A DNA stretch of 32,915 nucleotides, taken from positions 1 to 32,915 of IMG/VR virus record IMGVR_UViG_2526164631_000025. One strand, given 5' to 3'. This document shows, piece after piece, positions 1 to 22,909 of the stretch; the stretch's first letter is position 1, and every line of letters starts with the position of its first letter. The notes beneath the pieces are model-generated. The model saw nothing but the letters and a program-made list of their open reading frames with translations, ran no database searches and was not told the origin of the DNA. The position numbers and the translations under genes were made by a program. Source of the DNA: a virus. Taxonomy: Duplodnaviria > Heunggongvirae > Uroviricota > Caudoviricetes.

Positions 1-8
1 AATCCAGG

Positions 9-2164
<2,156 letters not shown>

Positions 2165-16373: not shown

Positions 16374-16951
16374 ATGCAGAAACAGAGCTATTGGGAGAAA
16401 CAGAGACAAAAAGCCATGCAAAAATTGGCTGACCCAGCCTGGCGAGAGGAACAAAGGGCAAAGCGCCTTCAACAAGCTCAACGCCAGCAGCAGCGAGCGA
16501 GAGAAAAAGCCGCATCGCCTGAATATCGGCAAAAGAAAATTGAAAAAGCAAAGCAATATGAACAGCGGAGAAAAGATAAAGCTGTATCCGCTCCGTCCAA
16601 AAAACACGCACGTCACGCGGCCTGAAAGGCAGATCACTCACAGCCGATGAACGCCGGATACAGACCGCTATCGGTGCTCTCCCCTGCATTGCCTGCCATA
16701 TTCACGGGCAACATAGCCCAGTGGTATCCCTGCACCATATCTTCGGGAGAACGGCAGAGAACGCACATAGATATGTCCTCCCTTTGTGTAAATGGCACCA
16801 CCAGTACGCAGCGCCAGCCGAGGTCCGAGAACAATATCCCTGGCTGGTCCCTGTTCATGCTGACGGAAAAATAGGCGGAAAAGCAGATTTCATGCGGCAC
16901 AATGCCGATGAAATGACGTTGTATCAGATGGCGATTGAATTGATAAATTAG
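16374..16951 (+). pseudogene. HNH endonuclease, apparently split by a 1-nt frameshift in an A6 run (16599-16604)
   Basis: Frame 1 (16374-16625) encodes a basic K/R/Q-rich 83-aa peptide; the next frame is open from 16580 with no canonical start and encodes CIAC...HHIFGRTAENAHRYVLPLCKWHH (complete HNH signature); one extra A would fuse them. Confidence 0.5.
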
Positions 16952-17196
16952 TTTTCTAACATTTTAAGTTGAATTGTAAATTTCTCCGATGTACATTCAC
17001 TACCGATTGGCACACCGGTCAACTTTTTGAGACAAACTGTTTAGTTTTTCGTATTATTGCCGCCGCTATACCTATGGCGGTGCAATATAGGTGGCTGAAA
17101 AGCCCCCGTTGACTCACGGTGTTCCAGCCTTTATTGCGCCGCCACCAGACCGTGGAACAGTCGATGGCGGCTCCGAAAGCAAGGAGTCACCACACT

Positions 17197-17286
17197 ATGA
17201 ACAGCTACTGTCTTTTCCCATCACTCGTTGTCCGCCACTCACGCGATAATCTGCATTCTTTACTCGCGCTGGGGGTGTCAAAATGA
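17197..17286 (+). CDS. mini-ORF (29 aa) with strong SD, coupled to the downstream ORF
   Basis: AAGGAG 9 nt upstream of ATG; stop overlaps the next ATG (ATGA); below the ORF track cutoff. Confidence 0.3.
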   Translation: MNSYCLFPSLVVRHSRDNLHSLLALGVSK

Positions 17287-17450
17287 CCGTTCGCTACCTC
17301 AACTTTCAAATCCAGAACATCACTGGCGGTTGCTATGACTGGTTTGTCACTCTCGGAAAAGAAGTGATCACCGGGAAGCTGGATGAAGTGAAAGCTAAAG
17401 CAATGGCCTACGCCTGCAAGCAAGCCCGGAAGAAATCCGCCAAAGCATAA
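17283..17450 (+). CDS. small basic protein (55 aa)
   Basis: MTVRYLNFQIQNITGGCYDWFVTLGKEVITGKLDEVKAKAMAYACKQARKKSAKA; GGGGG SD-like element upstream; below the ORF track cutoff. Confidence 0.4.
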   Translation: MTVRYLNFQIQNITGGCYDWFVTLGKEVITGKLDEVKAKAMAYACKQARKKSAKA

Positions 17451-17499
17451 AATACTGACTGTTGCGCCCTGGCATTATCGTGGGGTATATTTCTACGGC

Positions 17500-17740
17500 A
17501 CCTTAGAAAAACGGGTGCCGGGATTGGAACCCCGGATAATGCAAAAGGCGACACAGACGCCGAAAGCGTCTTTTTTTGTGTCATGCCATCGCACAGCCAT
17601 ACGTAGCGTTTAGCTCAGAGATCAATGGTAGTGCTGGCTGGGCTGCCGAAAGGCAGGCCGGTTCCCTTTTGCGCCGGTAGTTCCAACCCAGTCAGTGCTA
17701 CCGCCATTGAGATTGGAACCTCACGCGGTAGCTCCTTAAA
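17500..17740 (+). ncRNA. putative c4-type antisense RNA / structured leader upstream of icd-like gene
   Basis: ORF-free stretch with hairpins, an internal terminator, GATTGGAACC repeats at 17521-17530 and 17711-17720 and complementary GGTTCC/GTTCCAA between them; sits directly upstream of icd-like and antirepressor-like genes as in P1 immI. Confidence 0.3.
17556..17577 (+). terminator. rho-independent terminator
   Basis: GACGC-CGAAA-GCGTC hairpin followed by T7. Confidence 0.55.
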
Positions 17741-17762
17741 TTAGCAAAAGGAGGCTGCCAAT

Positions 17763-17978
17763 ATGGCTACTATCCCTACCCCAACTCATTCTGAATTTAT
17801 CTGGCGTTTCTATTCCTGCCAAAAACACCTGTATATCTGCGTCATGGCTGCTACCGAAGCAGAAGCTCGTTCATACCTTCCTGAAGAACCCTGCATTTTT
17901 GCCGCACGCTTCACTCTTGATGCGATGGAGATCCTAAATTACTGGAATCTGCCAATGAACTGCGTGGAGGTGCACTGA
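17763..17978 (+). CDS. Icd-like small protein (host cell division inhibitor Icd-like family)
   Basis: 71 aa with FIWRF...ATEAEAR...FAAR pattern recalled from Icd-like proteins; AAAGGAGG SD; stop overlaps the next start. Confidence 0.5.
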   Translation: MATIPTPTHSEFIWRFYSCQKHLYICVMAATEAEARSYLPEEPCIFAARFTLDAMEILNYWNLPMNCVEVH

Positions 17979-18919
17979 TGAATCTGTCCATCTCTCAAAA
18001 AGCGACAATGACCAGTATTGAGATCGCGGAACTGGTAGGTAAGCGTCATGATAATGTGAAGCGTACCATTGAAGTATTAACTAAAGGTGGTGTCATTCAA
18101 TTTCCTCAAATTGAGGAAATTGAAAATAAACAATCAGTTGGCCCTCGTCGATTTTCCAAGGCTTACATATTTGAAGGCGAACAAGGAAAACGAGACAGCA
18201 TCATTGTCGTCGCGCAGCTCTCTCCGGAATTCACCGCCCGGCTGGTGGACCGCTGGCGCGAACTGGAGAATGCCCGGGTACAGTTAAAATCAAAAGCCGA
18301 AATTCTGGCTGAAATGGCGCAAATGCATCTTGAGCATGAACGCCGGATCAACGCCGTAAATGCCCAGGTAGCCGAGGTATCAGCACAAGTATCGATGGTC
18401 GCTGAAACACTCGAGCAAATCAAGAAAGGCAATATTCCGGAAGGCTACATTGGCTACCGCCAGCTGGCGGCGAAATGTGGCCTGACTGAAGCCAAATGTC
18501 GCAACCTGGTTAACGCTTTCCGGATTCCCACCGATACACATGAGTTTTTAACTCCAGATGGTTTGCTTGCGCGACGCTCCATTGTGGCCCTGGTCCCCTT
18601 CCGGAAAGCCTTTAAGCAGGTGATGTCGGAGGCAGAACCACGCAATAAACGCTGGTATCATCCAAAGATGGGGATGTTTCAGGCAATCCACCATCCTGTG
18701 CCTGAAAGCCCAAAGGATAATCTGTCACTACATACCGTCAGAGAGAAGATCAGGACTGGATACGCAACAGTGTGTCGTCGTTCTTCCTGGCCTGAAGGTA
18801 TATGGGTGTGGCCCGAAGGTGGATCACGAAAGCACTGGCGCACCATCCGTGACGGGAAAATCCATGCTATTGATTTAGCTCCAGAGGATGTTATTGCTAT
18901 GGACTGGATTGTTAGTTAA
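17978..18919 (+). CDS. Rha-family phage regulatory / antirepressor-like protein
   Basis: N-terminal TSIEIAELVGKRHDNVKRTIEVL matches the Rha N-terminal signature; 313 aa. Confidence 0.6.
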   Translation: MNLSISQKATMTSIEIAELVGKRHDNVKRTIEVLTKGGVIQFPQIEEIENKQSVGPRRFSKAYIFEGEQGKRDSIIVVAQLSPEFTARLVDRWRELENARVQLKSKAEILAEMAQMHLEHERRINAVNAQVAEVSAQVSMVAETLEQIKKGNIPEGYIGYRQLAAKCGLTEAKCRNLVNAFRIPTDTHEFLTPDGLLARRSIVALVPFRKAFKQVMSEAEPRNKRWYHPKMGMFQAIHHPVPESPKDNLSLHTVREKIRTGYATVCRRSSWPEGIWVWPEGGSRKHWRTIRDGKIHAIDLAPEDVIAMDWIVS

Positions 18920-18928
18920 ATGCTGCAT

Positions 18929-18950
18929 CCCCGGCGACGCCGGGGATTTA
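18929..18950 (+). terminator. putative terminator hairpin
   Basis: CCCCGGCG/CGCCGGGG inverted repeat right after the stop; weak T-tract. Confidence 0.4.
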
Positions 18951-20591: not shown

Positions 20592-21245
20592 ATGGAAAAG
20601 ATCGCAATATTCAGCCTGACCACCAGCAAGCCTCAAATGCTCACTGCAATACTGAAAGACGGTGCTCTCATTATTAACGAAGTAAAACCCCTTCCCGCGT
20701 CAGCATTGGAGCAAAAGCAAAAAATTCCTCCAGCCATAGCAGCCCTGCGGAAAAGCAAATTTAAGGTACTGGTAGACGAAATTACGCCAACGATCTCCGC
20801 TGGCACCGGAGCAAGCCAGGTGACTCTCAAGACCCGTCATGCCGATGGCAGAGCAGCAATCATCGTCGGGATGGAAAGATACAGAGAGTTAAAACTCCAG
20901 AAGCTATTATCCCTGCCGCAAAATAACAAAGGTGCTTTCGAAATCCCCGACTCTATCGTTGATACCGAATACAACGGTAACGGAGAAGAAGTCTACAGGG
21001 TGAACTGGCAGGATATCAGGCCGGAGCATATTCTGATGATCCTGTGTTGCTACGCGACCGTATACCACAACGTTGCCAGTGCGGATTACGTAGAGCAGAT
21101 GACCGGTACAGTCGAGAAAGAGCAAAAAACAGGCATACTCGCTTCGTTCCTTTCCATTATTGGGCATGAAAAAGTTAAAGCAGGCACCTCCCAGCCAAAG
21201 TCACTGGCTGGGAAAGAAGTTGATGAAGATACCGTGATACTTTGA
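20592..21245 (+). CDS. hypothetical protein (217 aa)
   Basis: GGAGGAAGG SD 5 nt before ATG; the ORF track start at 20550 lies inside the terminator. Confidence 0.6.
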   Translation: MEKIAIFSLTTSKPQMLTAILKDGALIINEVKPLPASALEQKQKIPPAIAALRKSKFKVLVDEITPTISAGTGASQVTLKTRHADGRAAIIVGMERYRELKLQKLLSLPQNNKGAFEIPDSIVDTEYNGNGEEVYRVNWQDIRPEHILMILCCYATVYHNVASADYVEQMTGTVEKEQKTGILASFLSIIGHEKVKAGTSQPKSLAGKEVDEDTVIL

Positions 21246-21374
21246 TCACATTAGTAGCTTTGTTAACTCCCTCAACACCAGGTAGAAGAGTAACAAAAAT
21301 ATTGATGCCAGTATTTGAGTGGTCAATGAGGCGTTCATAAACAGATCAATAAGCTTTAACAATTCTAGAATAAC

Positions 21375-21379
21375 ATCCA
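21375..21379. repeat. IS2 5-bp target site duplication ATCCA (left copy; right copy at 22711-22715)
   Basis: Identical ATCCA directly flanking both IS2 termini. Confidence 0.7.
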
Positions 21380-21470
21380 TAGACTGGCCCCCTGAATCTC
21401 CAGACAACCAGTATCACTTAAATAAGTGATAGTCTTAATACTAGTTTTTAGACTAGTCATTGGAGAACAG

Positions 21471-21836
21471 ATGATTGATGTCTTAGGGCCGGAGAAACGC
21501 AGACGGCGTACCACACAGGAAAAGATCGCAATTGTTCAGCAGAGCTTTGAACCGGGGATGACGGTCTCTCTCGTTGCCCGGCAACATGGTGTAGCAGCCA
21601 GCCAGTTATTTCTCTGGCGTAAGCAATACCAGGAAGGAAGTCTTACCGCTGTCGCCGCCGGAGAACAGGTTGTTCCTGCCTCTGAACTTGTTGCCGCCAT
21701 GAAGCAGATTAAAGAACTCCAGCGCCTGCTCGGCAAGAAAACGATGGAAAATGAACTCCTCAAAGAAGCCGTTGAATATGGACGGGCAAAAAAGTGGATA
21801 GCGCACGCGCCCTTATTGCCCGGGGATGGGGAGTAA
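21471..21836 (+). CDS. insC: IS2 transposase OrfA (InsC)
   Basis: 121 aa [41 protein letters not shown]... Confidence 0.95.
21788..21794 (+). promoter_or_regulatory. IS2 programmed -1 ribosomal frameshift heptamer A_AAA_AAG
   Basis: Heptamer in the insC frame at the insC/insD overlap. Confidence 0.8.
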
Positions 21837-22699
21837 GCTTAGTCAGCCGTTGTCTCCGGGTGTCGCGTGCGCAGTTGCACGTCATTCTCAGACGAACCGA
21901 TGACTGGATGGATAGCCGCCGCAGTCGTCACACTGATGATACGGATGTGCTTCTCCGTATACACCATGTTATCGGAGAGCTGCCCACGTATGGTTATCGT
22001 CGGGTATGGGCGCTGCTTCGCAGACAGGCAGAACTTGATGGTATGCCTGCGATCAATGCCAAACGTGTTTACCGGATCATGCGCCAGAATGCGCTGTTGC
22101 TTGAGCGAAAACCTGCTGTACCGCCATCGAAACGGGCACATACAGGCAGAGTGGCCGTGAAAGAAAGCAATCAGCGATGGTGCTCTGACGGGTTCGAGTT
22201 CTGCTGTGATAACGGAGAGAGACTGCGTGTCACGTTCGCGCTGGACTGCTGTGATCGTGAGGCACTGCACTGGGCGGTGACTACCGGCGGCTTCAACAGT
22301 GAAACAGTACAGGACGTCATGCTGGGAGCGGTGGAACGCCGCTTCGGCAACGATCTTCCGTCGTCTCCAGTGGAGTGGCTGACGGATAATGGTTCATGCT
22401 ACCGGGCTAATGAAACACGCCAGTTCGCCCGGATGTTGGGACTTGAACCGAAGAACACGGCGGTGCGGAGTCCGGAGAGTAACGGAATAGCAGAGAGCTT
22501 CGTGAAAACGATAAAGCGTGACTACATCAGTATCATGCCCAAACCAGACGGGTTAACGGCAGCAAAGAACCTTGCAGAGGCGTTCGAGCATTATAACGAA
22601 TGGCATCCGCATAGTGCGCTGGGTTATCGCTCGCCACGGGAATATCTGCGGCAGCGGGCTTGTAATGGGTTAAGTGATAACAGATGTCTGGAAATATAG
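21794..22699 (+). CDS. insD: IS2 transposase OrfB (InsD, DDE integrase core; expressed as an InsCD fusion)
   Basis: 301-aa frame matching IS2 InsD as recalled. Confidence 0.9.
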
Positions 22700-22909
22700 G
22701 GGCAAATCCAATCCATGTCATTCACTCCGTTTAATTTTTAATCTAATTCCAGCAAATGAAGCTGGCCCTCGCATAAAGATTAATGAAAGTCACTTGTCAC
22801 CAGTGAGGGGATTTATGAACCACATCCCCCTGAACTGGTGGCCTGTCTGTTTCTCGCATTTCACACCCTGCATACAGTTTCCCCCAGGTTATGACTGAGG
22901 GGCTTTGTT

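Follow-up and report, generated by a model that had tools for sequence, protein, structure and literature searches.

In the immI regions of phages P1 and P7, the pairing sites a1 and b1, the antisense RNA C4, the sites a2 and b2, the gene icd and an antirepressor gene follow one another in this order, and specificity depends on a few bases within the pairing sites. The C4 RNA of P1 is excised from the operon transcript by RNase P and is a stable RNA of ~77 nt. Here, we analyze a module with the same order of parts at positions 17480-18919 of a Caudoviricetes virus record, IMGVR_UViG_2526164631_000025; the whole stretch of DNA that was analyzed, 32,915 nt, is called the window below. The original prediction, made from the sequence alone, had read this module as P1 c4-like logic, in which an antisense RNA acts over the translation signals of an icd-like gene and a Rha-type antirepressor gene (ant). 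This reading is supported by a match to the Rfam C4 family, by homology to Icd and by covariation of the pairing sites. The whole module is almost certainly an ordinary, intact P1 "immI"-type switch, which very probably works like P1 c4-icd-ant.

The likeness to P1 and P7 also includes the placement of the sites. In all of them, a' lies in a junction of C4 and b' in the loop of its hairpin 2, b2 lies on the icd ribosome-binding site (RBS), and the icd stop overlaps the antirepressor start. The differences concern the sequences and the parts around this core. P1 has an Ant1/2 antirepressor with an in-frame second start (ant2), whereas the Rha-type gene of the window has none. The window leader scores as isrK and not as c4-a1b1, unlike that of P1, and the a and b sites are different in sequence from those of P1 and of P7. 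The upstream neighbors in the window are ref and small open reading frames (ORFs), while in P1 they are simABC.

Gifsy-1, an integrated lambdoid prophage of Salmonella that holds the type locus of IsrK, shares with the window an isrK-family leader, the promoter and start layout, a C4-family RNA next to the leader and an antirepressor gene downstream. It differs in having no icd: there, b2 is located directly on the RBS of the antirepressor gene anrP, and the ORF over C4, orf45, has its end within the start of anrP. The output of the Gifsy-1 antirepressor goes to the AntQ antiterminator. For the IsrK RNA of Gifsy-1, both binding to Hfq and activation of the antirepressor in trans were shown, and an RNA of ~80 nt, STnc1160, is processed from the read-through transcript of this locus (PMC4825925). 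Shiga toxin (Stx) and other lambdoid phages (F004, LC710661, and phiP27) also have isrK and C4 upstream of Rha or antirepressor-like genes. These loci differ from the window in that there is no icd between C4 and the regulator, the genomes are integrated and lambdoid, and the b alleles are different. Another related system is the immunity of P4, in which a small RNA is processed from the leader of the operon that it controls and complementary sites lie upstream and downstream (seqA and seqC). The P4 CI RNA causes premature transcription termination on replication genes and does not act on an icd-antirepressor pair (PMC4825925).

The type of system and the connection between IsrK and C4 are already known, since the GenBank record of the Stx phage F004 annotates isrK and C4 side by side and c4 antisense RNA and c4-a1b1 were both listed as motifs (Weinberg et al. 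2010). Taken alone, finding a textbook P1-type antisense switch in a common family of Escherichia coli plasmid prophages adds little. Its value lies partly in annotation, as the two RNAs are absent from the RefSeq and D6 records and spurious coding sequences (CDSs) are called on top of them, and partly in the pattern of specificity alleles and the apparent second module described below.

Two structured RNAs upstream of icd

The gap between the stop of the upstream ORF (17450) and the icd ATG (17763) is 312 bp. It had been described as an ORF-free region of roughly 250 bp, which holds loosely, given that several ORFs of 30-58 aa lie within it. The stability of the fold of 17480-17780 far exceeds that of shuffled sequence (z = -5.5), and the internal terminator that had been noticed was confirmed as a stem at 17555-17571 followed by a run of 7 T. 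This "structured region" consists of two RNAs, C4 and, ahead of it, a leader small RNA (sRNA) whose end is the internal terminator.

The leader (17498-17576, + strand) matches the Rfam family isrK (RF01394) over its full length at 62.5 bits (E 2.8e-11; gathering score 50) and corresponds to the a1b1 element of P1. It has the parts of an IsrK-type leader, namely two 5' hairpins, a single-stranded linker and an intrinsic terminator. The sister model, c4-a1b1 (RF03163), reached 22.4 bits at the window leader, below its threshold of 46.7. The isrK model matches the a1b1 region of P1 and P7 at 35-44 bits, and in Gifsy-1 one and the same place exceeds the thresholds of both models. Transcription of the leader is predicted to start at G17498, downstream of a putative operon promoter (17462-17491, + strand) with a -35 element TTGCGC (17462-17467), an 18-nt spacer and a -10 element TATATT (17486-17491). 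The hexamers and spacing are kept in diverged relatives (TTGCGC-18-TATGCT), and Gifsy-1 shares this layout (TTGACA-18-TATATT) with the start 7 nt downstream.

The covariance-model search that had been proposed together with the original prediction gave a C4 match (RF01695) at 17621-17708 on the + strand. The match covers model positions 1-87 of 87 and scores 76.7 bits (E 1.6e-13; gathering score 45), compared to 68.8 bits for the C4 of P1. The minimum-free-energy fold (-46.6 kcal/mol, z = -5.3) equals the family structure, with a closing stem, two hairpins and an unpaired junction. The ends of the mature RNA were mapped from the annotated c4 of P1 (L003:744-820) via the covariance model, which places the predicted mature C4 at 17627-17705 (79 nt). 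The next base is A, giving a tRNA-like GCCA. This 3' end fits recognition by RNase P, and C4 would be excised here as it is in P1.

An ORF of 39 aa (17625-17744, + strand) runs over C4 and begins at its conserved AUGG. In near-identical plasmids, PGAP calls this ORF an "ash family protein". The D6 record has a minus-strand CDS, orf84 (L002:5959-6258), annotated across the RNA region, and in phiP27 the "transcriptional regulator" L16 (L006:1448-2107) is annotated atop the isrK and C4 RNAs. Neither isrK nor C4 is annotated in the RefSeq and D6 records, in which CDSs are called over them.

Six pairing sites at the positions known from P1

The sites were mapped using the annotated a1, b1, c4, a2 and b2 of the P1 record and an alignment of P1, P7, D6, a Punavirus, a Stx phage, phiP27 and the window. 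The a sites are built around the decamer GATTGGAACC, which the original prediction had reported twice. It does occur in exactly two copies in the window (expected 0.09; none of 100 shuffles gave two or more), and the internal terminator sits between them; the first copy is at 17522-17531, one base from where it had been placed, and the second is at 17711-17720. The core of the first copy is a1 (UUGGAAC, 17524-17530, + strand), which is part of the loop of hairpin 2 in IsrK; the predicted fold leaves it unpaired. The core of the second is a2 (UUGGAAC, 17713-17719, + strand), which begins 8 nt past the predicted 3' end of C4, in the same relative position as a2 of P1. Their partner a' (GUUCCAA, 17680-17686, + strand), which the predicted fold leaves unpaired, is in the C4 multiloop, in the junction that joins hairpin 2 to the closing stem. 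It has 7 bp of complementarity with a1 and aligns with the a' of P1 (CUGUCAA).

The second copy of the decamer had been placed just upstream of the icd RBS. In fact, it ends 27 nt before the Shine-Dalgarno sequence, and the site that covers the RBS is GCAAAAGG at 17744-17751. This belongs to a second pair of sites, b1 and b2 with their partner b', that was absent from the earlier account. The 8-mer GCAAAAGG has only two copies in the window, and its reverse complement occurs once, in the C4 loop. The first copy, b1 (17541-17548, + strand), lies in the single-stranded linker of IsrK. The second, b2, overlaps the icd Shine-Dalgarno sequence AAGGAGG (17748-17754), so that site and signal together span 17744-17754 (+ strand) ahead of the ATG at 17763. 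The loop of C4 hairpin 2 holds b' (CCUUUUGC, 17665-17672, + strand), which is complementary to both b1 and b2 and takes the same position in the alignment as b' of P1 (UCACUAAC). The helix lengths are those of P1 (7 bp for a and 8 bp for b), and b2 of P1 also overlaps the icd RBS.

Two elements between the decamers had been proposed as the complementary partners. One of them, GTTCCAA, is a'. The other, GGTTCC at 17660-17665, is not a partner, because it is unchanged where the a sites of relatives differ (GAGAC and other alleles). Half of it belongs to the stem of hairpin 2 and half to the loop, it is constant in D6 and the other relatives with other a sites, and the hexamer is not enriched in the window (17 copies compared to 12 expected). 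Pairing of GGTTCC loops with GGAACC was therefore rejected in favor of the junction GUUCCAA.

Compensatory covariation and reassorting alleles

Eighty loci with a relative of Icd were collected from viral contigs and yielded 37 distinct leaders; with two lambdoid phages added, 39 leaders were aligned. The helices between C4 and its targets on the mRNA were preserved almost without exception: a'-a2 (7 pairs) was 100% paired with 5 pairs changed on both sides, and b'-b2 (8 pairs) was 98.7% paired with 4 changed on both sides. The helices with the leader behaved in the same way, as a1-a' (7 pairs) was 99.6% paired with 5 changed on both sides and b1-b' (8 pairs) was 100% paired with 6. The internal stems of C4 (27 pairs) were 99.7-100% paired, with 13 pairs altered on both sides. 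When the helices and the C4 internal stems were tested together, 0 of 500 shuffles matched the observed pairing, and sliding the partner by 1-3 columns brought pairing down to 26-50%. An alternative count, the longest complementary run with G-U pairs allowed, returned tied and misleading matches (GGGAUUG) and was superseded by the column-based counting.

Pairing-dependent regulation is supported by how strongly C4 and its targets covary in a compensatory manner. A plain 5' untranslated region (UTR) without such regulation, the alternative named in the original prediction, was set aside on these grounds. In every leader examined, b2 lies on the Shine-Dalgarno sequence, and the AAGGAGG in its 3' part does not vary.

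Ten allele combinations were seen among the leaders. The a alleles GGAAC and GAGAC and the b alleles GCAAAAGG and GUCAAAGG occur in all four combinations on near-identical backbones, and each allele is altered consistently at all three places, with locus L039 as the sole exception. The window differs from D6 in the a allele alone (GAGAC in D6), and GUCAAAGG is the b allele of locus L008. The natural b' of the L008 allele is CCUUUGAC compared to CCUUUUGC in the window, and the a' of D6 is GUCUCAA compared to GUUCCAA. Duplex energies were calculated for these short helices. The cognate a'-a2 duplex has -9.4 kcal/mol, versus -3.2 when the a' of the window is placed on a2 of D6, and the cognate b'-b2 duplex has -12.7 kcal/mol, versus -6.5 to -7.0 for non-cognate alleles. 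Cognate duplexes are thus ~6 kcal/mol more stable than non-cognate ones, except for the D6 a' on the window a2, which reaches -9.0 kcal/mol in an alternative register that uses flanking bases.

The exceptional locus, L039 (IMGVR_UViG_2778261639_000014), has an a1 (UUGAGAC) that mismatches its own a' and a2 (GUUCCAA and UUGGAAC), and it is the only such leader in the panel. This leader resembles a recombinant of the isrK and C4 parts, and it hints that the constraint on a1 is weaker than that on a2.

The gene after icd varies among the 80 loci (L008-L087): it is of the P1 Ant1 type in 30, of the Rha type in 25 and of the Roi type in 19. Where it exists in full, an overlap of its start with the icd stop is seen in all loci but one. 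The RNA allele of the window was found with all three effector types, and identical RNA alleles are common to elements with differing effectors and Icd types (71 aa or 73 aa), which implies frequent recombination within immI. The a allele of the window, UUGGAAC, is also carried by phiP27. The specificity helices are interchangeable alleles, compensated at three places and common to differing phage-plasmids and lambdoid prophages. From their pattern, it can be predicted which elements residing together are able to silence the antirepressors of one another.

The icd-like gene and the Rha-type antirepressor

The first cistron after C4 is an icd-like gene (17763-17978, + strand) for a 71-aa homologue of a cell division inhibitor. 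The protein has 63% identity with P1 Icd over 59 aa (E 6e-28) and matches NCBIfam NF033153 phage_ICD_like at 49.4 bits (cut-off 25) and phrog_1426 at 3.7e-41. As had been read from the sequence, its stop overlaps the start of a Rha-type gene; the two share one base (TGATG). This gene (17978-18919, + strand) encodes a 313-aa antirepressor with a Phage_pRha domain (Pfam PF09669) at residues 11-98 of its N-terminus (37.3 bits, cut-off 29.9). It also matches phrog_63, "anti-repressor Ant" (2e-61), and its region has 90.6% DNA identity with the "anti-repressor Ant" region of D6, whose record describes that Ant as similar to a phiP27 protein. The full-length model, NCBIfam TIGR02681, gave 18.8 bits, below 45.95. 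By these matches, the antirepressor has the domain of the Rha family without its whole architecture.

In a BLASTP comparison with P1 Ant1, no similarity was found (E 0.2), and the second cistron is not of the Ant1/Ant2 type. In P1, the operon promoter has an operator for the repressor C1, as part of a tripartite immunity system based on C1. The P1-type C1 operator ATTGCTCTAATAAATTT, with up to 3 mismatches allowed, had no match anywhere in the window. Homologues of P1 C1 were found by tblastn in 21 phage records, and D6 (NC_050154) is not among them.

A G+C-rich hairpin follows the antirepressor gene (18929-18949, + strand; CCCCGGC-GAC-GCCGGGG, then AUUU) and, as read from its sequence, is likely the end of the operon. 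It was omitted by a terminator scan because its T run is short.

A model for control by C4

The two RNA families, the positions and complementarity of the six sites, the three-way covariation, the Icd homology and the gene overlap were all computed here. Drawing also on what is known of P1 and Gifsy-1, the module would work as follows. A single promoter at about 17462-17491 would transcribe the leader, C4, icd and ant. Some transcripts would stop at the leader terminator and produce a 79-nt IsrK-type sRNA with the decoys a1 and b1. Read-through transcripts would hold C4, which would be excised as a stable, tRNA-like RNA of ~79 nt, as in P1 and Gifsy-1. Through a' and b', C4 would pair with a2 and b2 on the mRNA and hide the icd RBS. 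The icd gene would then be left untranslated because b2 overlaps its Shine-Dalgarno sequence, and ant would be silenced as well because its start lies inside the icd stop. The silencing of ant could come about by the loss of translational coupling together with Rho-dependent polarity, as in P1. Free IsrK (a1b1) RNA may compete for both sites of C4 and thereby relieve repression, which would agree with the trans-activation seen in Gifsy-1. Since two short helices set specificity, elements with other a and b alleles would escape this C4; the heteroimmunity of P1 and P7 and the allele pattern both point in this direction. Finally, the Rha-type protein would inactivate the primary repressor of the element, by analogy with P1 and Gifsy-1.

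The published data on Gifsy-1 were also mapped onto these sites. A C4 match of 69 bits begins 25 nt downstream of isrK in Gifsy-1, and the six sites (a1/a'/a2 and b1/b'/b2) are found at equivalent places with different sequences (UUGGCGU and AUCACCG). With numbering counted from the first base of the isrK match, the mutated IsrK residues G28 and G31 fall in a1 (UUGGCGU), and the mutated orf45 residues C159 and C162 fall in a' (ACGCCAA). The changes G28A and G31A in IsrK abolish its trans activation, and C159U and C162U lift translation of anrP from 4 to 926 and 484 units, respectively (PMC4825925). The ORF called "orf45" in Gifsy-1 coincides exactly with the 45-aa reading frame opened by the conserved AUGG of C4. 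These data, which lend the model experimental support from a homologous locus, can be re-read simply, with IsrK as the a1b1 decoy of the C4 RNA.

Several points weigh against control by a trans-acting C4 as set out above. The authors of the Gifsy-1 work invoke a cis structural switch and translation of orf45, and not a trans-acting C4, and a1 mutations in cis raise basal expression there, which is not what a pure decoy model predicts (PMC4825925). From the mismatch in L039, a1 may be dispensable. The operon promoter is putative and weak by consensus, and a consensus promoter scan was silent at this position because the -35 element is weak. Processing by RNase P and polarity by Rho would be carried over from P1. 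Lastly, the antirepressor is unrelated to P1 Ant, and the searches described above gave neither a C1 homologue in D6 nor a P1-type C1 operator in the window.

The likeliest rival is the cis switch of the Gifsy-1 IsrK model, in which pairing of a1 with a' in one mRNA locks an inactive fold and C4 in trans is not the main repressor. Native gels of the Gifsy-1 RNA show two conformers, IsrK in trans activates anrP translation 140-fold, and expression depends on the start codons of orf45 (PMC4825925). The complementarity and covariation of a1 and a' are compatible with pairing in cis as well. What the cis switch leaves unused are a2 and b2, even though their covariation with C4 is as tight as that of a1 and b1 and b2 sits on the Shine-Dalgarno sequence. 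Moreover, Gifsy-1 double mutants in which a1-a' pairing is restored stay derepressed, at 224 and 327 units compared to 4 (PMC4825925), as expected if a' must pair with a2. Nor can the corresponding ORF of the window couple to icd as orf45 does to anrP, because its end at 17744 leaves 19 nt to the icd ATG. This ORF is also not conserved, having 14 or 30 codons or being fused to icd in other loci. We consider it rather unlikely that the cis switch replaces repression by C4; the two are not mutually exclusive, and the cis switch may act alongside C4. A different possibility is that a C4-like RNA pairs with flanking sites, as in P4, and mainly causes premature transcription termination instead of a translation block. 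The P4 immunity region does have 70% DNA similarity with the module over 187 nt. Translational repression in P1, as described by Biere et al. 1992, reportedly also ends in transcription termination. The authors of the IsrK study themselves drew the analogy with P4 seqA and CI RNA, but their translational fusion responded ~17x more strongly than the transcriptional one (139-fold versus 8-fold; PMC4825925). Together with the constant position of b2 on the Shine-Dalgarno sequence and the invariant AAGGAGG, this suggests that the ribosome is the primary target and makes mainly transcriptional control improbable.

It is harder still to credit that the region encodes small proteins, such as the "ash family protein" ORF or D6 orf84, or is an inert 5' UTR. 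The PGAP call and the orf84 annotation speak for proteins, and several PHROG "transcriptional regulator" profiles match the ORF translation in their middle part. These PHROG matches probably trace back to CDSs called across the RNAs, phiP27 L16 being one. The 39-aa peptide itself has no NCBIfam or Pfam match, and in the window the minus-strand ORF is broken into pieces of 58 aa and 30 aa. The ORF over C4 has 14 codons in P1 and L084 and 30 in P7 and is fused to icd in other loci; since its length (14 to >51 codons) and frame vary, it is not a conserved protein. In addition, the 13 internal stem pairs of C4 that change on both sides stay paired while the peptide is scrambled. The protein-coding reading of the C4 region was rejected on the non-conserved length and frame of the ORF and the covariation of the stems.

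A second C4-like element upstream

A second, diverged C4-like RNA lies upstream at 17070-17149 (+ strand). Its Rfam C4 score of 40.2 bits (E 2.4e-5) is below the gathering score of 45, and its fold is C4-like (-36.2 kcal/mol, z = -5.0). It is also found in D6. It has candidate target sites of both kinds: an a2-like UGGAACA (17153-17159) complements UGUUCCA in the junction, and a b2-like GAGUCA (17184-17189), on a Shine-Dalgarno sequence AAGGAG, complements UGACUC in the loop. Its surroundings, from 16969, include a promoter-like TTGAAT-17-TACATT (16969-16997) and a decayed a1b1-like leader. Downstream, a 29-aa ORF (17197-17286) overlaps by ATGA with a 55-aa ORF (17283-17450; phrog_7786).

In 27 D6-like loci, the second element is nearly invariant while its flanks diverge by ~24%. 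One stem position changes from U:U to U:G to C:G, and the target-like sites are invariant in all copies found. In the plasmid pHX138.33gt_1, the same element stands directly before an annotated 61-aa Icd-like gene, followed by the same small ORF, and a Shigella plasmid likewise has it before a full Icd-like gene. Because plasmids of the pHX138.33gt_1 type keep an Icd-like gene at this place, the window appears to hold, at 16969-17450, a tandem second immI-type module with a truncated icd-like gene.

A tentative extension of these findings is that D6-like phage-plasmids carry two tandem C4-type switches with different tasks. The upstream one, with fixed sites, would control the truncated icd-like ORF and the conserved 55-aa protein, a possible second anti-immunity effector. 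The downstream one would be a two-site RNA "barcode", in which, among elements of the P1-like and D6-like kinds, the a allele combines freely with the b allele and both with the effector gene, and one a allele recurs in phiP27. We regard this as possible rather than probable. If true, the RNA barcode would define cross-lineage immunity groups that are invisible to protein-based typing.

Origin of the window and its other features

The window is a D6-like (P1-related) phage-plasmid or plasmid prophage. The 1.5-kb region of the module is 100% identical to NZ_CP066033, an E. coli plasmid of 97 kb, and has 90.6% identity with phage D6, a plasmid prophage related to P1. Of 5426 complete E. coli genomes, 429 contain DNA resembling the module, at 575 places, 564 of them on plasmids. 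The second matching place of each plasmid record does not lie within the window. As a whole, the window is a close relative of NZ_CP066033 but a distinct molecule, because the orientation of IS2 and the first 1961 bases differ. IS2 (20942-22710) is opposite to the NZ_CP066033 copy, and window positions 1-1961 have no counterpart in the segments of that plasmid that were compared.

Inside ant, a near-perfect 29-nt inverted repeat, caatttcctcaaattgaggaaattg, spans 18096-18124. An Rfam "SL1" match on the minus strand (18017-18126; 32.4 bits compared to a gathering score of 75) lies over this palindrome and was rejected as a chance match. The ref-like recombination-enhancement nuclease gene (16374-16951) is in two frames owing to a one-base deletion in an A-run at ~16599-16605, compared to NZ_CP066033, which is either a true frameshift or a homopolymer sequencing error. 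Along with ref, the genes nearby that are typical of D6 and P1 are dam, rdgC, phd/doc, higBA and a metallophosphoesterase gene.

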